Source of the DNA: a virus
Taxonomy: Duplodnaviria > Heunggongvirae > Uroviricota > Caudoviricetes
Virus record (IMG/VR): IMGVR_UViG_3300025765_000001
Length of the DNA stretch: 64,000 bases
Direction: 5' to 3' (one strand)
How positions within the stretch are numbered: the first letter of the stretch is position 1; each line of letters opens with the position of its first letter. Shown here piece after piece: positions 24,929-58,708 of the stretch. Position numbers and translations under genes: made by a program. The notes below the pieces were generated by a model, which was given only the letters and a program-made list of their open reading frames with translations, was not told where the DNA came from and did not search any database.

Positions 24929-25369
24929 CTACGGTCCTCCTTCGCCTCCGATGTCGATGTAGGGATCGTCATGCGGCCAAATCGACTCATCCTTTGCTTC
25001 TTCGACATCTAGCTCAGTGTCTACTTCAAGTGGTGCGAATCTGTGCTTCCGCTCCTCAACATAGCCAAGGAAGCAGATATTATCGTCCGCACGCAGCGAC
25101 TTCTGAAAGACGAAGACGTAGTAATCTATGGCTGTGGCGTGACCAAAAGGGAATTCGTTGGGGCCGAATGTCTGCAACAACCTCTTGTCCATACCCCTAG
25201 ACGAATCGAATAGATCAACCGTCGTTTCTCTGAGAACGAAAACGAAGTTCTTGTGGTCCGTGCAGTCTTCGACCTCAAAGGCGTCCCGCAAGGGCTTCTC
25301 ACCGCTGACATCCTGGGCCTGAAGCTCATTGAAAAGCTCCTGCCTGAACTTGTCGAGTGGACTGGTCAT
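24929..25369 (-). CDS. Hypothetical protein
   Basis: ATGA overlap with the smpB stop. Confidence 0.6.
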   Translation of the reverse strand: MTSPLDKFRQELFNELQAQDVSGEKPLRDAFEVEDCTDHKNFVFVLRETTVDLFDSSRGMDKRLLQTFGPNEFPFGHATAIDYYVFVFQKSLRADDNICFLGYVEERKHRFAPLEVDTELDVEEAKDESIWPHDDPYIDIGGEGGP

Positions 25370-25818
25370 TCTCGCATCTCTCTTTTGGTGTCACGCTCCT
25401 TCATGGCTTGGCGTTTATCATGAAGTTGCTTTCCTTTGCAGACGGCCAACTCGATTTTAGCCTTGCCTTTGCTCAAGTAAAGTTTGAGCGGAACAAGGGT
25501 ATGACCGATCTGCTCGGCTTTCTCCGCAAATTTGCGAATTTCGTTTTTGTGAAGCAGTAGCTTCCTCCTGCGTTTGTGTTCATGGTTGTCGTGGCTGCCG
25601 TGACTGTATTCTTCGATGCTACAGCCTATCAGCCATACTTCCCCGTTCTCCATTTTAGCGTATGAGCCGTCGAGGGATACCTTGTGATCCCGTATGCTTT
25701 TTATTTCGGTGCCCTTCAGAACGATTCCCGTCTCGATGGTATCTAGCACGTAATACTCGTGCCATGCCTTTCGATTTTGGCATATCGTTTTCTCGCTGGG
25801 TTCCTTCCATTGAGTCAT
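25366..25818 (-). CDS. smpB: SsrA-binding protein SmpB
   Basis: 'NRKAWHEY', 'ETGIVLKGTEIKSIR', 'RRRKLLLHKNEI', 'TLVPLKLY', 'KGKQLHDKR'. Confidence 0.96.
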   Translation of the reverse strand: MTQWKEPSEKTICQNRKAWHEYYVLDTIETGIVLKGTEIKSIRDHKVSLDGSYAKMENGEVWLIGCSIEEYSHGSHDNHEHKRRRKLLLHKNEIRKFAEKAEQIGHTLVPLKLYLSKGKAKIELAVCKGKQLHDKRQAMKERDTKREMRE

Positions 25819-42904: not shown

Positions 42905-43153
42905 ATGAGAAACACCATCATGTTCATCATAGGCATGTCTATAATTGTGTTCCTCGGATGGTTTGTTTGTTACGACTACTATCTCTCAATGACTGGCAGT
43001 AGGACGTTCAGTACCGTGGTCTACGACTGGACGCAAGCAAATCTCAAGAAACCCCACGTCCTAATTAGTACCGCCGTCACCATTGGGCTTACAATCGGCT
43101 TCGTGCTTGGCTTCATCCTTGGACACCTTTTCTGGCCGCACAATCCATCTTAG
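42905..43153 (+). CDS. Small two-TM membrane protein (late class, holin-like size)
   Basis: TACATA 4 nt before the ATG; two TM helices; terminator hairpin at 43178-43209. Confidence 0.5.
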   Translation: MRNTIMFIIGMSIIVFLGWFVCYDYYLSMTGSRTFSTVVYDWTQANLKKPHVLISTAVTIGLTIGFVLGFILGHLFWPHNPS

Positions 43154-45381
43154 TGCAAAATGGCCTTTGGTAAATCAAAAAGCCCAGGCCCGCAAGGGCC
43201 TGGGCTTTGTTGATACAACGCCTTGGCAAGCACTTGTTCAAGGTGCTGCACCGCACCAGCCTCGTCCAAGAACAAGCCATCAAGCTGTGCTTCGTAGCAT
43301 TCGCCGATGACCTGTCCAAACAGCGGCCCCGGCTTGAAACCACGGTCGATCAGGTGTTGTCCGCCAATGATCGGCCTTGGTTTTGCAGCCTCAATAGCCA
43401 ATCGCTCTGCGATAGCAGCGATCTCCTTGGCTGGTTCTGGTAGACCACCGGCAAGCGGGGGGCGTCCTGAATGGTCGGCTTCGAGAATGAGCAATAATTC
43501 TTTCATTGTTGCTTTCCCAAGCCGAACAGATAGACGCCGTACCACTCGATCCGTGATCTCGCTGGTGGTCATGCAAATCATATGCTCTGCAACCAGCGGC
43601 AGAACCTTATCTACAATCCTTTGTAGACACCCAATCCTTTCCAAGAATCGGCGAGCTAAAGGTACTCCTACCTCTGCGTGACCCGGCGATCTCCACCTGT
43701 ACGTTGATGAGTGGATTCCTTGTTCTGGCAATGTCTTGCCAAGGTCTTGACAACTTCTATTTTGTCCATTCTCATCAACGTACACGGTGGTCCCGCCGTT
43801 TTGTGGTAGGGCTTTCCCTAAATCGTGGCAGAGAGCCGCAAGTATGATCGTAGCACGATCCTCGCCTTGCAAGCCTTCTCTATCACAGATACGGGCAGCG
43901 GCATCGCATACATGGAGCGTGTGTGTCCAGGCACAACCGATTCTGACTTCAAAACTAGATTTTTCTTCTAGTTTTTGAAGTAGTTCTACTCCATTATAGG
44001 GTGAAGGCAGGTACACAGGAGTAGAACCATGACAGTCAATGCTTCCATTCACTCGAAGGTCGAAGTGAACGAGTACATCACCATCAATGGTAGAACCAGT
44101 CGCATCCACTACAACAAGGGATACGCTTACACCAGTTGGCCTGGGCATAACGGAACCATTGGTGTCCATCGAATCTTGATGGAATTGCACTTGGGGCGAG
44201 AACTCTTTTCCAGTGAGCATGTTCATCACAAAGATGGCAACCGACTCAACAATAGCCTCGATAACCTCGAAATCATTGATGGCTCGATTCACAACCGACA
44301 GCATACAACTCTCAGGAATCTTAAACATGATCCTGATAATTTTACCTGCCTCGATTGCGGATCGACCGAACGACCACACAAGGCTTTCGGGATTTGCGAA
44401 AGTTGTTGGTTCAAACGTCGCCGAAAAACCATCGCCAAGAGACCCTGTGCTATTTGCAGCAGAGAGACCGTCAACGGCACCGTCTATGCCGGGCTTTGCG
44501 GGCGATGTGCCTGCAACAACTGGCATTGCTGCCGACTTTGCAGAAGAACTAGAAAAGAACTTCCGCAAAGTAAAACTCCGATCAACCCTGATGGTTTGTG
44601 TAGAGCTTGCCAAGCGAGAGTTAAACGGAAACTCCAAGAACTTTCGTTCAAGTAGCTCCCATCCTTCCGGGTGCCATTCAGGGTCTTGTGGAACGTCGAT
44701 CAGATTCAATAGCTCTGGGTAGAGCCGAATCCAGCCGCTCTCTACAAGGAATCGAAGGCCCAGAGAAGGAAGTACGCCTTTCAAAGCCCACTTCTCCCAC
44801 TCGCCCCAGATACGCTCAATAGCTAAGGTATCGGCCTCGCAGATTAGCTTCTGGCACATATCAAGCGTTCTAGCATCGGCGATCAGCTTAAACCGGCTTG
44901 CGAACTGGAAGCCCCTCAGCACCCGTAGTGGGTCTTCAGAGAAGTGTTCGCTGATAGCTCGCAATACGCCGTTGAGCAAATCCTGCTTGCCGCCATATGG
45001 GTCTACCAATTGCCCGTCTAACCTCTTGCCGATGGCATTGATGGTGAAGTCACGCCGCAGTGCGGCCTCAGCCGGGGTCATCGTGTGATCGACTTCGACC
45101 TGAAAGCCTCTGTGCCCTCGCCCGGTCTTGTTGTCACGGCGAGGTAGAGAGAAATCGAAGTCTTCATCCTCGGTAGTCAGCTTGATAACACCAAAGGACT
45201 CGCCGACTATGCTCACCTTGCCGAAACGACGCAGTACGATGCACAGAGCCTCGGCACTAAGGCCAAAGACTTCAACATCTACGTCTTTGCTTTCCAGGCC
45301 GAGTAGCTCGTCACGAATACAGCCACCGACCTTGATGGGGTCGCCGCCTGCCGCAACGATGGCTTGTAGGATATGGTTCAT
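43150..45381 (-). CDS. cca: CCA-adding tRNA nucleotidyltransferase with HD domain, carrying a 242-codon in-frame insertion
   Basis: 'VGGCIRD', DxD 'DVDVE', 'RRDFTINA', 'EDPLRVLR', 'PQDPEWHPEG|...|CAWTHT', 'HDLGK', 'EAD', 'PGP.FG'. Confidence 0.92.
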   Translation of the reverse strand: MNHILQAIVAAGGDPIKVGGCIRDELLGLESKDVDVEVFGLSAEALCIVLRRFGKVSIVGESFGVIKLTTEDEDFDFSLPRRDNKTGRGHRGFQVEVDHTMTPAEAALRRDFTINAIGKRLDGQLVDPYGGKQDLLNGVLRAISEHFSEDPLRVLRGFQFASRFKLIADARTLDMCQKLICEADTLAIERIWGEWEKWALKGVLPSLGLRFLVESGWIRLYPELLNLIDVPQDPEWHPEGWELLERKFLEFPFNSRLASSTQTIRVDRSFTLRKFFSSSSAKSAAMPVVAGTSPAKPGIDGAVDGLSAANSTGSLGDGFSATFEPTTFANPESLVWSFGRSAIEAGKIIRIMFKIPESCMLSVVNRAINDFEVIEAIVESVAIFVMNMLTGKEFSPQVQFHQDSMDTNGSVMPRPTGVSVSLVVVDATGSTIDGDVLVHFDLRVNGSIDCHGSTPVYLPSPYNGVELLQKLEEKSSFEVRIGCAWTHTLHVCDAAARICDREGLQGEDRATIILAALCHDLGKALPQNGGTTVYVDENGQNRSCQDLGKTLPEQGIHSSTYRWRSPGHAEVGVPLARRFLERIGCLQRIVDKVLPLVAEHMICMTTSEITDRVVRRLSVRLGKATMKELLLILEADHSGRPPLAGGLPEPAKEIAAIAERLAIEAAKPRPIIGGQHLIDRGFKPGPLFGQVIGECYEAQLDGLFLDEAGAVQHLEQVLAKALYQQSPGPCGPGLFDLPKAILH
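43936..44661 (+). mobile_element. 726-bp homing-endonuclease element inserted in inverted orientation in cca
   Basis: Removing it restores HPEG-CAWTHT; it contains an HNH ORF and terminal hairpins. Confidence 0.8.
44029..44655 (+). CDS. HNH homing endonuclease (HNH_3/I-HmuI-like) with C-terminal Cys-rich Zn-finger repeats
   Basis: 'VHRILMELHLGREL..SEHVHHKDGNRLNNSLDNLEI..H..H'; several CxxC pairs; SD AGGAG within a 10-bp stem. Confidence 0.9.
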   Translation: MTVNASIHSKVEVNEYITINGRTSRIHYNKGYAYTSWPGHNGTIGVHRILMELHLGRELFSSEHVHHKDGNRLNNSLDNLEIIDGSIHNRQHTTLRNLKHDPDNFTCLDCGSTERPHKAFGICESCWFKRRRKTIAKRPCAICSRETVNGTVYAGLCGRCACNNWHCCRLCRRTRKELPQSKTPINPDGLCRACQARVKRKLQELSFK

Positions 45382-46451: not shown

Positions 46452-46733
46452 TTAGTCGTCCTCATCATCGTCCGGATCGTCATCATCATCTAAGTCGTCA
46501 TCGTCCGAATCGTCATCATCGAAGTCGTCATCGTCCAGATCGTCGTCATCATCCAGATCGTCGTTATCGAATTCTTCGTCCTCGAAGTCGTCGTCGTCTG
46601 GCTCATCGAATTCCGGGTCATCATCAAAATCGTCTTCGTCCTCGTCGGGACCGGCGACGACGACATCCGCACCGTGAGCGAAAATGACGGTCTCGACATC
46701 GGGCAACTGAACTTCAAACGTTTGGGTTGTCAT
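46452..46733 (-). CDS. Extremely acidic (Asp-rich) small protein
   Basis: SD AAGGAG; the C-terminal ~65 aa are mostly D/E; lies directly downstream of the mini-tmRNA. Confidence 0.7.
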   Translation of the reverse strand: MTTQTFEVQLPDVETVIFAHGADVVVAGPDEDEDDFDDDPEFDEPDDDDFEDEEFDNDDLDDDDDLDDDDFDDDDSDDDDLDDDDDPDDDEDD

Positions 46734-46773
46734 GGGTATTACTCCTTTTTGCGAGAACAACCTAGTTCAGGAG

Positions 46774-46913
46774 TGGAGGCGAGGGGAGTCGAACTCCTGT
46801 CTAACTGAGTTGCTAGGTTGCCGCCGAGTTTTCGTTGTACGCATTTGTCTCGGCTTGGGCTACCACGCCCCAGGTATCTACTTGGCTCAGCTATCGAAAC
46901 CGTGAACGCCCCC
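46774..46913 (-). ncRNA. ssrA: Miniature tmRNA (140 nt; 3' CCA not encoded)
   Basis: Acceptor stem GGGGGCG/CGCCTCC-A (G3:U70, A73); stemless D-loop TTCACGGTTTCGA; helix 2 TAGCTGAG/CTCAGTTA; GAC + T-arm AGGAG-TTCGACT-CCCCT; tag frame at 46813-46842. Confidence 0.85.
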
Positions 46914-46980
46914 TTTAGCCACACTTGCGAAGGTGTGGCTTTGTACGACAGTCGCATATAGTTCTTCTATTTTGATCCTC

Positions 46981-47352
46981 CTATACAAGAATTTTACGAT
47001 CAACCGCCTGCTGGAACGCCCGTTCGTATAGTTCCAGTAAACGAGCCATTGGGTCCGTTGTCTTTTTGGGGATGTATTGCACGACAACCCAGGAAGGCAC
47101 ATTCTGTTCGTTGTACCTGTCCACGCCACGCATAATGCAGGTGATCTTCTCGCCGTAGCCAAACTTCACAAAAAGGCGATTTGCGAGTTTGCGACCCTCA
47201 TCCGTCCAGGGCAGAACCACGAAGCGAATCCGATTATTGCCACGGCAAGCTGAGTAGCTGCCGCTCAGAGCCTTGACCGCCTTCGTGAACTTGATGAAGG
47301 ACGGGTTGGCATGTAGATGCAACTCGACGTGCTTGGGTACTGGTGCTGTCAT
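46981..47352 (-). CDS. Hypothetical protein
   Basis: SD AAGGAGG; downstream of promoter TTTACA-N16-TACAAT (47376-47403). Confidence 0.6.
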   Translation of the reverse strand: MTAPVPKHVELHLHANPSFIKFTKAVKALSGSYSACRGNNRIRFVVLPWTDEGRKLANRLFVKFGYGEKITCIMRGVDRYNEQNVPSWVVVQYIPKKTTDPMARLLELYERAFQQAVDRKILV

Positions 47353-47651
47353 TGGTCCTCCTTAATTCAGGCCCCATTGTATTGCCAAAGCACTTTCTGT
47401 AAAGCCGGGTTTAGCGGCTTTTCTTCGCCTGTTGTTTGGCTTTATAGCGTTCCAGAGCGACCTGCCTCGGTCATGTTAAGCAAGGCCCAGCCGGAAAAAC
47501 CACTCCACGCTGCCCAGCCAGCATCTACAATAGATTTAACAGTGCGGGCGTGTCGTTGCCGTTCATGGTTTTAACTTCCCGATCCTGCAACGGCAAGGCC
47601 CGCAACTACCGGCCCGCAACTACCGGACTTGTTGTTTCGATGGCGTCCGCA

Positions 47652-48118: not shown

Positions 48119-48409
48119 CACTTACAAAGACGCTGTTGGATAGCCTCGGCCTTCGTGTAGGTCGAAGCACGATTTAGTTCCTTGCCCTTGCCGTCCTTGA
48201 CGATCAGGATGCCCACTTACAAAGACACTATTGAATAGCCTCGGCCTTCGTGTAGGTCGAAGCACGATTTAGTTCCTTGCCCTTGCCGTTCTTGACGATC
48301 AGGATGCCCACTTACAAAGACACTATTGGATAGCCTCGGCCTTCGTGTAGGTCGAAGCACGATTTAGTTCCTTGCCCTTGCCCTTGCCATCCTTGACGAT
48401 CAGGATGCC
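48119..48409. repeat. Tandem triplication of a 95-bp unit (3' end of a gene)
   Basis: Copies start at 48119, 48214 and 48309; they differ only by transitions plus one 6-bp duplication. Confidence 0.9.
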
Positions 48410-53834: not shown

Positions 53835-54548
53835 TCATTTTTGCACCCTGTTCTTGTTGATGGTTCTCTCGTTCCACAATTGTCCTTGTTTGAATGTGAC
53901 CCGCACCATCTTGAAACGATGCGTTAGCCAGCGTCCATCGCCGACCTTGATGTACAAGCCCTCTCGCTTGGCTTTGGTGGAGTATGGTGATTCACTATTG
54001 CTCCATTCCTCAACCTCGACGTAGTTTGTCAGCGGACCTTGGTGAACCAGAGGCACGACTGCAAACCCGGCCTCGGTCAGCGATGCTCGTGCGATACCAG
54101 GATCAATATAGTGCAGGGCCTCGTAGTCGTAAAGGTCGTAGGCGATAAAAAGCGAAGGCAGTTTGTCGTACTCCATGCCGTGTTGGGCAAGCATCCACTC
54201 GCCGTAGACAGACACAGGCCCAGCCAGATCAAAGAGCTTCTTGAAGCACTTCTGATTCTGGTAGTACCAATTCCACAATGGAGCAAACTGCATTTTGGCA
54301 GCGGACGTTTTCTTGGCATTGAAGCCCTTGTGGAGAATATAACTCCGGTTTCGCACGATAGGATGGCCGTTGACTAGAGCGATACCACAGTTGGCCCCAT
54401 CTACCTTCTCTTCTACAAAGACACGAGGAGCGGTGAATAGAATCTCCGCATCGGCCTTATCAGAGATAGGGTCATCGTCCGTGGCATTCGGGTTCCACGG
54501 CAAGTGCCTTGTCCGTGGAAACTCTGGTAGATAATCGCTCTCAATCAT
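53835..54548 (-). CDS. RNA ligase (Rnl2-like nucleotidyltransferase domain)
   Basis: Motif I 'EEKVDGAN', 'YGEW', 'FIAYD', motif IV 'EGLYIK', motif V 'RFKMV'. Confidence 0.85.
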   Translation of the reverse strand: MIESDYLPEFPRTRHLPWNPNATDDDPISDKADAEILFTAPRVFVEEKVDGANCGIALVNGHPIVRNRSYILHKGFNAKKTSAAKMQFAPLWNWYYQNQKCFKKLFDLAGPVSVYGEWMLAQHGMEYDKLPSLFIAYDLYDYEALHYIDPGIARASLTEAGFAVVPLVHQGPLTNYVEVEEWSNSESPYSTKAKREGLYIKVGDGRWLTHRFKMVRVTFKQGQLWNERTINKNRVQK

Positions 54549-56445: not shown

Positions 56446-57489
56446 TTAGGCGATCATCCTTTCGACTTCCTTGCCGTCGCCCTCCTCCTCGCCTTCTTCG
56501 CCGACCTTGGCCGGTGTTACCTTGTCGCCACGTCCGCTGAAGTTCAGCAGGAAATCGGTAGCCGTACTTGCTAGCGTCGATGCCTTGAAGATGAAGGCGT
56601 TGTCGTTACTCATCTTCGACAACCACTCGGCCAGATACCGAGTGTGGTTGTCCAGGTTCTCAGACTGCGGCAGATGAAGCTCGGCTGCCATGTAGCAGGC
56701 CGTAATCTCGGCCACTAACTCGCACATTGCATAGCCCAGCGTCTCACGGTCAATCGAGATACGAACCTCGCTCCAGTGGGCAAGCTCATGAAACTCGGTG
56801 TCATAGAATTCGCCTTCATCGGCGAAGTTGCCCTTGGGCGGCATCTGGATATAGTCGCCGCCCTTATGCTTCGGCCACTTGCCGCCAGTCGGCAACTTGT
56901 AGCACGCCCGGTCGCCGCCGAACACGATCTTGGCACCAGTAGCCTCCACGACTTTCTGAGCAACCGAGAAGTCAGGGCTGACCTTGATCTTGGTGTCCGC
57001 CATTGGACCGGGGCGGAACTTGTCTAGATTCTCGCCCTCGACCTGATCCAGATTGAACACCGTGTACGTCCGCATCAGCGGAATCTTTTTGACCTTCGGT
57101 TTGCCGTCCTTGGTCTTGGCATCCTTGTCAACGACTTCTAAGAACTTCCAGTAAACGATATGTGTTCCCCACTGGCCCGAAGACACGTCGGCAGGCCGCT
57201 TCTTGACCTGACCGTCCAGGGCTTCCCACTGGCGGTAGGTTGCCCACCACTGGCTGCGGAAGCCGTAGAATTCAGATGCTAGTTCCAGAAGCAGCGGGTT
57301 GATGCCCCTGTACTTTTTCTTGCTCACGATGTTGCGAGGCAAACCACAGTTGGGGTCTGACCGCCAGGGCCGCACCCAGGGCCGCTTACCTTCCTTCAAG
57401 GCGTCGTTGATCTTCTTGGTGATGGCGGTGCGGATTTCCTCGGTCCACTGCCGACTATTGCCCCCGCCGCTCTTCTTGGCTTTCGCCAT
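56446..57489 (-). CDS. ardC: ArdC-family antirestriction/ssDNA-binding protein with zincin-like domain
   Basis: 'PWVRPW', 'YRGIN..LL', 'WATYRQW', 'VFNLDQ', 'HELAHW', 'YA..ELVAE', 'YL..W'. Confidence 0.88.
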   Translation of the reverse strand: MAKAKKSGGGNSRQWTEEIRTAITKKINDALKEGKRPWVRPWRSDPNCGLPRNIVSKKKYRGINPLLLELASEFYGFRSQWWATYRQWEALDGQVKKRPADVSSGQWGTHIVYWKFLEVVDKDAKTKDGKPKVKKIPLMRTYTVFNLDQVEGENLDKFRPGPMADTKIKVSPDFSVAQKVVEATGAKIVFGGDRACYKLPTGGKWPKHKGGDYIQMPPKGNFADEGEFYDTEFHELAHWSEVRISIDRETLGYAMCELVAEITACYMAAELHLPQSENLDNHTRYLAEWLSKMSNDNAFIFKASTLASTATDFLLNFSGRGDKVTPAKVGEEGEEEGDGKEVERMIA

Positions 57490-57502
57490 GATGGTTCTCC
57501 TT

Positions 57503-58708
57503 TCAGGCAACGAGGGCCGCATCGCTATAGCGAATACCACGCTTTTGTAGCTCTGCGGCACCGGACATAGTTAGAGTATAGCCCTTGCCAGCCTTGATCT
57601 TCACCAATGGCTCAAGCTGGTCAGGCAGCTTCATCACCAGAGGCGACATGACCTCTAGCAATTCGTTCTCATCTTCACAGCCAGTAACATCGATCATGCG
57701 GGCCTTGCTCACCGGCCCCAGGGCCAGTGCCTTCAGCACGTTAACTCGCTGGAGGGTCATGCCGTGTTCGTCAATCTCCCATTCCCGCCGAATCGTTTCG
57801 CAAGCCGTCTCCCAAGAGACCTGGGACTGTTCAACTTCATCAGAAACGTCCTCGGCGAAGTCCACAACCTCACGAGGAATGCGACCGGCGATTTCGGCGA
57901 TACGCTCGCAGATGTCATCCGGCACCAAAGGCAGGTGGACCTTAATGATGTCGGCAATCTCATCTGCGGAATACGGGTGCAGGCTGATCTTGGTGAATCG
58001 AGTCTTGAACGGGCCGAACAGCCTGCTACGGTGCGTAGTGGCAATCATCCAACACACGTTCGAGCAATCCACCGTCCAACCAGCTTCCGTTACCAGCGTG
58101 CGGTCCTTCTTCTCGGTCGCCTTTAGCAAAGCGTTCACGATGCCGTCACGCAGGGCGTGAACCTCATCCAGCAGCACGATGCACGGCGGCAGAATGACAT
58201 GCCCCGGTTTCGGCGGAATGATGCCCAGGGTCACAGTCTGGTCGCCAACCTTGACCTCGAATTCATCAAGGACTCGCCCAATATACACCAACAGGTCGTT
58301 GCACGACTCGATGGAGCGAGGGTGAACCTCGATGAAAGGCAGACCCAGGCCCTTTGCACGAGCCTTGCCAACGCTGGTCTTGCCAACGCTAGACGGACCA
58401 AGCAATGCCACGTTCTTGAACGCAGCAGAATGATTGCGGTTCTTCAAAGCCCGGCGATCTAGCCGCTGGAGCCGCCGCTTTGCATTCTCATTGCCAATGA
58501 TCCATGAATACATGCGGCGGGCATGGACAGTACGCTCTTCCAGGCTCGGCGACTCGCCGATAAAGAAGATGCGTTCACGCTGCTTGATCTCACCGACATG
58601 GTAAGCCGGTTCCTGCTCCATCAGCTTCTTGGCCTTCTCTACTGCCTTGAGCGGAGTCTGGTCCAAGTAGTGCTTCAGGTACAGCAGAATAGTTTTGGCA
58701 TTGATCAC
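57503..58708 (-). CDS. ruvB: RuvB-like Holliday junction branch-migration ATPase
   Basis: 'LLGPSSVGKT', 'LLDEVH', 'ATT', 'RF', 'YS..E', 'GRIPR', C-terminal winged helix 'E..L...G..LT'. Confidence 0.75.
   Translation of the reverse strand: MINAKTILLYLKHYLDQTPLKAVEKAKKLMEQEPAYHVGEIKQRERIFFIGESPSLEERTVHARRMYSWIIGNENAKRRLQRLDRRALKNRNHSAAFKNVALLGPSSVGKTSVGKARAKGLGLPFIEVHPRSIESCNDLLVYIGRVLDEFEVKVGDQTVTLGIIPPKPGHVILPPCIVLLDEVHALRDGIVNALLKATEKKDRTLVTEAGWTVDCSNVCWMIATTHRSRLFGPFKTRFTKISLHPYSADEIADIIKVHLPLVPDDICERIAEIAGRIPREVVDFAEDVSDEVEQSQVSWETACETIRREWEIDEHGMTLQRVNVLKALALGPVSKARMIDVTGCEDENELLEVMSPLVMKLPDQLEPLVKIKAGKGYTLTMSGAAELQKRGIRYSDAALVA

Follow-up and report, generated by a model that had tools for sequence, protein, structure and literature searches.

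Comparative analysis indicates that a 140-nt element on the minus strand of the window, as we call the whole 64,000-nt stretch of phage DNA analysed here, is a real tmRNA-derived RNA gene. The family of miniature RNAs to which it belongs and the fold common to that family are both well supported by sequence comparison. The RNA appears tmRNA-like in the first steps of the pathway, and it fails both the tests for the standard class (pseudoknots, tag) and those for "TLD-only" RNAs (size, interior). Quite possibly, it is an accessory tmRNA derivative that depends on SmpB and carries trans-translation only through its first half.

The miniature gene and its parts

The initial annotation had described a mini-tmRNA with a tag frame, and each of the features it listed for this RNA is present in the window at its position. 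The acceptor stem has 7 bp with G3.U70 and A73, a D-loop analogue is present, and the helix-2 strands are 76 nt apart. In the suggested Infernal search the element scored 55.2 bits on the Rfam tmRNA model RF00023 (gathering score 47; E 6e-19); the match runs end to end, with 290 model positions replaced by 59 nt in the alignment. The order of the gene is standard, the 5' part preceding the 3' part of the tRNA-like domain, and the permuted two-piece tmRNA model RF04321 scored 10.7 bits against a cut-off of 47. ARAGORN, also suggested as a check, did not call the gene in the window with either default or relaxed settings, and because this program misses it, the RNA is possibly missing from most annotations. 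The family model R1, by comparison, assigns it 104.8 bits. The features discussed below are as follows.

46774-46913, minus: mini-tmRNA gene, spanning 140 nt as far as the discriminator base and lacking an encoded CCA
46894-46913, minus: 5' half of the tRNA-like domain, with the G3-bearing acceptor strand and D-loop analogue (from sequence)
46873-46893, minus: 5' strand of helix 2, comprising outer stem, internal loop and inner stem (from covariation)
46857-46870, minus: hairpin A, with a 4-bp covarying stem and a near-invariant GUGGUA loop, at the pk1 position
46823-46854, minus: stem B, whose 6 bp covary and enclose the 20-nt resume loop (46829-46848)
46846, minus: A equivalent to A86 of E. 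coli
46840-46842, minus: resume codon
46813-46842, minus: nine-codon frame and stop, private to this copy
46774-46822, minus: 3' strand of helix 2, followed by the T arm and the acceptor strand that carries U70 and A73
46917-46940, minus: upstream hairpin, 8 bp, unconserved (absent in L380, different in L378 and L381)
46981-47352, minus: 123-aa gene of unassigned function, 5' of the mini RNA, used as synteny marker
47376-47403, minus: sigma-70-like site, a 10/12 match in a promoter scan, not above the chance count
25366-25818, minus: smpB, 150 aa, with a short tail of 17 residues from the DKR motif
43150-45381, minus: cca-type nucleotidyltransferase-HD gene containing an in-frame insert of 242 codons (43936-44661)

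The region at 46981-47403, with the 123-aa gene and the sigma-70-like site, is a possible source of the mini RNA transcript. Upstream of the mini RNA in two relatives, L378:730-780 and L381:1910-1960 hold a common sequence with two interleaved complementary pairs that could form an H-type pseudoknot; a plain hairpin stands there instead in this genome, and nothing in L380. Directly 3' of the mini RNA, a gene at 46452-46760 (minus) encodes a 102-aa protein composed mostly of Asp and Glu and without a Pfam match. When an antisense partner RNA was sought in the 220-nt flanks of the mini RNAs, the best antisense matches were 7-10 nt long, which is the chance level.

Orthologues at the same locus

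The 123-aa upstream gene has three homologues of 67-72% identity, and each is followed by a mini RNA. These three orthologues (L378, L380 and L381) are 138-139 nt long and score 92-102 bits on a model built without them, and the locus carries a full-length tmRNA in none of the three. The conserved length of about 140 nt that the initial annotation had looked for is thus borne out both here and in the family at large (132-140 nt), and the full-length tmRNA in relatives that would have made this copy a relic was not found. Relative to the copy in the window, the orthologues show compensatory changes, and they lack its two mismatches, an A.C pair in the T stem at 46795 and a mismatch in inner helix 2 at 46875 (A, where the orthologues have G). 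Both are private G-to-A changes of this copy, which may be weakened by them.

The mini RNAs of this phage group (this copy, L378, L380 and L381) share 26-28 of the 28 nt at their 3' ends with the phage's full-length tmRNA, and the first 20 nt of the L380 RNA match it exactly, with an interior that is family-like. Such sharing of the 3' end is seen neither in G303 nor in Patescibacteria. Gene conversion between the mini RNA and full-length tmRNA genes is possible in this phage group.

Distribution of the family

Pattern scans across collections of viruses, metagenomes and genomes, together with model searches, yielded at least about 30 distinct sequences of 132-140 nt in phages, metagenomes and nine Patescibacteria genomes. 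The viral carriers are eight records of 22-436 kb, and in the metagenomes several mini RNAs reside within tRNA arrays. In the Patescibacteria genomes, one of which is titled Berkelbacteria, CCA is encoded and the gene neighbours are chromosomal. The mini RNA was detected in 9/151 genomes of the carriers' class and in 1/151 of the phylum, and in Planctomycetota chromosomes it was found in 0/151 and 0/5 genomes, with 22 candidates per genome scored in the set of 151. The loose pattern returned mostly noise from genome contigs, only three of 120 matches being real members. An exact 20-mer scan of IMG/VR for the mini RNA gave no match, nor did IMG/VR when queried with the SmpB, and blastn of two family members against GenBank phages returned one 31-nt match at the 3' end and nothing else.

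All nine Patescibacteria carriers have a separate full-length tmRNA gene, as do two of the viral records, this phage and G303. Among the eight viral carriers smpB was found in this phage only, and in three near-complete viral carriers neither a full-length tmRNA nor smpB was found.

Four of the Patescibacteria copies (L177, L306, L310 and L312) have their own 3' end repeated in direct orientation within about 60 nt downstream, and in L177 and L306 an antisense copy of the 3' end lies ahead of this direct repeat. The repeats look like small insertions targeting the mini gene.

A conserved fold

The fold consists of the tRNA-like domain, a helix 2 split in two by an internal loop, and a three-way junction from which hairpin A and stem B extend. 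In a sequence-only alignment of 18 members, standard pairs occupy 89.5% of cells, against 61.6% in shuffles and 35-53% when the partners are slid, and 27 of the 31 base pairs show changes on both sides; G3.U70 is present in all 18. In an anchor-based comparison of 25 members, pairing with a sequence's own partner exceeded pairing with another member's strand for every stem, and in 20,000 permutations the observed value was not reached once for any of the six stems. Hairpin A, for example, forms 3.6 Watson-Crick pairs with its own strand versus 2.1 across sequences. The outer and inner stems of helix 2 both covary, this helix is of near-normal length, and stem B has 5-7 bp in most members, with a loop of 19-20 nt in 17 of 25. 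As the interiors average 57% identity versus 49% in shuffles, structure is conserved far better than sequence, and the pattern of substitutions points to selection on the structure of the mini RNA.

The RF00023 alignment and the fold contain neither H5 nor pseudoknots 2-4. Hairpin A had been taken for a possible remnant of pk1; it lies at the pk1 position but, by pairing, is no pseudoknot. A kissing or pseudoknot interaction between loop A and the resume loop was sought and scored 3.56 against 3.62 in shuffles, and no partner for the GUGGUA loop was found within the mini RNA. A mini-stem of 2-3 bp within the resume loop was borderline (P = 0.056).

Resume signal

Every one of the 25 members carries, 15-18 nt after loop A, an A-purine-N-N-G followed by C or GC, a motif met by chance in 6.8% of shuffled arms for the 15-18-nt window and in 19% for the wider window searched; as the rule itself fixes the A and the G, the evidence lies in the match rate and spacing only. 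The resume position given by the initial annotation is correct, with A at -4, purine at -3 and G at +1. The signal lies 11-14 nt from hairpin A; in E. coli, 12 nt separate pk1 from the resume codon, and A86 is the main determinant of frame (PMC2481249). A86 is read by SmpB Tyr55, which stacks on it, and Tyr24 (PMC8363625), and the phage SmpB has, by eye, the equivalents of both tyrosines.

The resume loop provides about 6 nt before the codon and, in 20/25 members, 13-14 nt after it. The 14 nt 3' of the codon are the counterpart of E. coli G90-A103, which takes in a segment that binds uS3 (PMC13692277). Immediately 3' of the resume codon, all members have a pyrimidine and nine full-length tmRNAs with a cleanly read resume codon have a purine, so that the motif may serve something other than decoding. 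An A at -5, which blurs the frame in E. coli (PMC2481249), is present in 13/22 members.

No conserved tag frame

The initial annotation had read a nine-residue tag from this copy and asked whether its frame is conserved. It is not, as the orthologues differ and stops across the family occur at the chance rate. From the shared resume codon, the frame reaches a stop at codon 10 in this copy, at codon 14 in L380 and at codon 2 in L381, and has none in L378. Across the 25 members, which are not all independent and of which the closest relatives already disagree on the frame, 12 have an in-frame stop before the 3' end, compared to 12.1 +/- 2.5 in shuffles, and 13 have none. The stops fall at codons 2 (four times), 4, 5, 10 (three times), 12, 13 and 14. 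A search for a conserved alternative frame did no better, with stops in 7/25 at +1 and 12/25 at +2. The stop in this copy comes from a compensatory swap of C-G to A-U in helix 2, which supplies its U. In each of the four members from this phage group, codons 7-8 specify Ala-Ala, and these codons also form paired strands of stem B and helix 2. The family gives no sign of selection for a stop.

Genome context

The window belongs to a 436-kb viral record that is about 85% complete, and the same genome encodes a full-length 361-nt tmRNA (C1:100789-101152) with the canonical-looking tag GETPAYRMAA. A ClpX homologue (252099-253316) and two ClpP-family genes (91166-91669 and 390221-390736) lie outside the window, so that full-length tmRNA, ClpX and ClpP constitute, as predicted from their genes, a complete tagging and degradation set in the phage. 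Of the 63 tRNAs called in the genome, 61 lack CCA.

The smpB gene proposed for 25366-25818 is confirmed by PF01668 (191 bits) and by an NCBIfam match above cut-off, and it is the only smpB of the genome. The proposed cca gene at 43150-45381 encodes a class II nucleotidyltransferase with an HD domain; its best NCBIfam matches are CCA-adding families, but all fall below their cut-offs. The two genes lie 21 kb and 1.4 kb from the mini RNA, respectively. The suggestion that mini RNA, SmpB and CCA-adding enzyme form a dedicated system is not supported, given the full-length tmRNA, ClpX, two ClpP-family genes and 61/63 CCA-less tRNAs of this genome and the failure to find smpB in the seven other viral carriers; with the full-length tmRNA and the CCA-less tRNAs, smpB and cca have ordinary explanations.

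The phage SmpB ends at the equivalent of E. coli residue 153. Tail lengths counted from the DKR motif are bimodal among 120 homologues (14-20 versus 22-27 residues). Among homologues P0002-P0066, the short ones of 141-153 aa have tails of 14-21 residues and the longer ones 22-27, and the three short ones checked are all on phage-like contigs. E. coli SmpB without residues 154-155 has severely reduced tagging, with binding unaffected. Since short tails may be functional in other species and the phage keeps a normal tmRNA, the short tail is a lead only as regards tagging. Gemmataceae, Pirellula and Fuerstiella are among the named sources of homologues of the SmpB and the CCA enzyme, which hints at a Planctomycetota host but does not prove one.

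Proposed mechanism

In the scheme that we tentatively favour, the mini RNA would be processed, given CCA, charged with alanine and brought with SmpB into a non-stop ribosome, where it would accept the nascent chain, undergo translocation and cause the broken mRNA to be ejected. SmpB would grip the A at -4 and present the Ala/Gly resume codon, and reading would then end within a few codons. An early end is expected on two counts: a stem closes the loop, and the ring would be too small to go round the 30S beak, the second point being based on published dimensions. The ring of a normal tmRNA measures 81 x 97 Å around the 30S beak (PMC8363625), and for full loading the message has to pass the 30S latch within a ring of that size or larger. 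Calculated for the mini RNAs, opening stem B costs 10-16 kcal/mol (11-22 in all with the inner helix), and at most about 35 unpaired nt become available once stem B opens, with more only if the inner helix opens as well. If reading does end early, no coding selection would act downstream of the resume codon. Release could occur through a release factor where codon 2 is a stop (4/25 members) and otherwise through drop-off, another rescue factor or the full-length tmRNA, and the product would carry one or a few extra residues and no dedicated degron. Mitochondrial tmRNAs without a tag are thought to be helpful, and an altered tag does not abolish rescue (PMC11915505, PMC8012679). The accessory role is supported by the full-length tmRNA in 9/9 bacterial carriers and two phages.

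Alternative explanations

The main rival of this half-pathway scheme, rather unlikely in our estimate, is a decoy or inhibitor that would titrate SmpB (with EF-Tu and AlaRS) or park on non-stop ribosomes, with the resume loop as a second contact for SmpB and normal tagging damped. Such an RNA would have precedent in the similar molecule of mycobacteriophage DS6A, which inhibits tmRNA, perhaps via SmpB titration (PMC4131195, PMC11915505); it would need no tag, which fits the chance-level stops, and it would suit both the three near-complete viral carriers with neither smpB nor full tmRNA found and the common occurrence of 68-87-nt tag-less forms in the same searches. Yet the RNA is chromosomal in nine Patescibacteria genomes alongside their own tmRNA, this phage itself encodes tmRNA, SmpB, ClpX and ClpP, and a pure sponge would have no need of an Ala/Gly codon at +1 or of a fixed 13-14 nt after it. 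The opposite possibility, complete trans-translation in which the stems melt and the ribosome reads to the stop of a non-degradable nine-residue tag, as the initial annotation had it, we regard as improbable. This copy does combine a perfect resume context with an in-frame stop, each of pk1-4 is replaceable in E. coli (PMC2481249), the Ala-Ala at codons 7-8 is kept throughout the phage group, and four members have a two-residue Ala-Ala frame comparable to known ones (PMC11915505). Against these points, 13/25 members lack a stop and each of the three orthologues differs from this copy, whose own stop is the product of a compensatory base-pair swap; the Ala-Ala codons double as stem B and helix 2 strands; and the phage SmpB ends where truncation severely cuts tagging in E. 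coli.

A role away from the ribosome is very unlikely, whether as a tRNA mimic serving as bait for nucleases or tRNA-sensing defences, as an integration target, or through binding of NCCA ends by the GUGGUA loop. The hairpin A loop is near-invariant, partnerless within the RNA and complementary to ACCA, and is presumably comparable to T-box antiterminators, which bind NCCA ends; four Patescibacteria copies are, moreover, followed by a repeat of their own 3' end. Such a role leaves the tmRNA-specific D-loop analogue, helix 2 and pk1-spaced resume consensus unexplained. We give least credence of all to a functionless leftover, either of a deletion in a full-length tmRNA or of an attachment site, which would account for the identity of 26/28 nt at the 3' end of the mini RNA (46774-46801) to the phage's full-length tmRNA and for the two private mismatches. 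The deletion reading fails since no orthologue is full-length: three relatives keep the length and fold at this locus with compensatory changes. The interior, too, resembles distant family members and bears only a weak similarity to the phage's own full-length tmRNA (local score 50 versus 42 +/- 4 in shuffles), and both ends of the gene are present and covary. At the level of the family, comparison of the sequences largely refutes the relic. An att remnant, in which only one end would be duplicated and the interior unconserved, does not fit, as both ends and the interior are conserved with compensatory changes.

Relation to known tmRNAs

With the standard tmRNA (SsrA, RF00023), the mini RNA shares the tRNA-like domain with G3.U70 and A73, the D-loop analogue, a long helix 2 and the resume consensus about 12 nt past the pk1 position. 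It differs in length (140 versus about 360 nt), in having a hairpin for pk1 and no H5 or pk2-4, in holding the resume codon in a closed 20-nt loop, in lacking any conserved tag, stop or hydrophobic degron, and in accompanying a full-length tmRNA in every bacterial genome that could be checked. Like the "TLD only" tmRNA of DS6A (Hudson et al. 2014, PMC4131195; the "Standard, no CDS" class of PMC11915505), it is phage-borne, has an intact tRNA-like domain and no functional tag, and is extra to a normal tmRNA; whereas the DS6A type has little beyond the tRNA-like domain (68-87 nt), the mini RNA has in addition a 76-nt domain that is built on a three-way junction and carries a conserved resume signal. 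The CDS-less tmRNAs of mitochondria and plastids (jakobids, Mallomonadaceae; PMC11915505) are likewise SmpB-dependent tRNA mimics without a tag frame, thought to aid with incomplete mRNAs, but they are the sole tmRNA of their compartment and have no resume loop. The tmRNAs with a two-residue Ala-Ala tag (25 sequences, mostly Fermentibacterota; PMC11915505) resemble the 4/25 members with a stop right after the resume codon, although neither this copy nor most members have this immediate stop.

Huge phages encode tmRNA, SmpB and CCA-adding enzymes, and the part of that report drawn on here relies for its tmRNAs on ARAGORN, which misses the mini RNA, and contains no miniature form (Al-Shayeb et al. 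2020, PMC7162821). The 2025 tmRNA database, built mainly from ARAGORN and BLAST hits with some genes discarded for large internal deletions, holds nine "standard, no CDS" sequences and 25 with two-residue tags (PMC11915505). As its phylum table lists three no-CDS entries for Patescibacteria, a few family members may already be filed there. A literature search on mini, minimal and phage tmRNAs, with most subscription papers outside its scope, returned only the DS6A, organellar and two-residue-tag forms, the resume-loop architecture being undescribed in the papers covered.

If the half-pathway scheme is right, the family might stand as a third class of natural tmRNAs, intermediate between full-length and TLD-only forms, with tagging and non-tagging rescue side by side in phages and Patescibacteria. 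It is similarly conceivable, on the same reading, that the 135-nt RNA has been pared to those parts that contact SmpB and the mRNA path of the 30S subunit (6 nt ahead of the resume codon and 14 nt beyond it). Engineered mutants have so far been the main means of asking how much of tmRNA is required beyond its tRNA-like domain, what purpose the pseudoknot ring serves, and whether release is separable from tagging; in this family, a natural 135-nt form that lacks a tag retains its resume signal, in a loop of constant size, across divergent lineages. Its size suits direct biochemical and cryo-EM tests of message loading. Were it a decoy, it would represent a second phage design for interference with trans-translation.

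Other elements observed

The same scans yielded TLD-only RNAs of 68-87 nt, which are common and occur in phages and several Patescibacteria genomes (L021, L023, L032, L033, L118, L313-L317, L324, L327, L331, L333, L353 and L387). Other tmRNA-like elements of 126-134 nt have different interiors (L009, L010, L013, L014, L076, L090, L098, L130, L145 and L370); three of these (L076, L130 and L370) keep a resume-like loop and place the second hairpin 3' of it, and L010 combines a resume-like site with a frame of 10 codons and a stop. Large viral contigs were also found to carry shortened tmRNAs of 296-308 nt with normal tags (L359:125-420, L340:5888-6194 and L369:3491-3798).

The insert in the cca-type gene sits exactly between the WHPEG motif and the next Cys, and homologues of about 690 aa are many. 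An HNH endonuclease gene (44029-44655, plus; PF13392, E 8e-10) lies on its opposite strand, an arrangement that recurs, with a very similar HNH, in the relative L437. Searches of the insert for intein ends and for an Rfam intron match (group I) found neither; possibly, it is a homing element that survives by way of an open host frame on its antisense strand. Elsewhere in the window, a 20-nt hairpin occurs three times with 95-nt spacing at 48153-48362, and an RNA ligase gene (PF09414) and an ArdC-type anti-restriction gene are located at 53835-54548 and 56446-57561, respectively.
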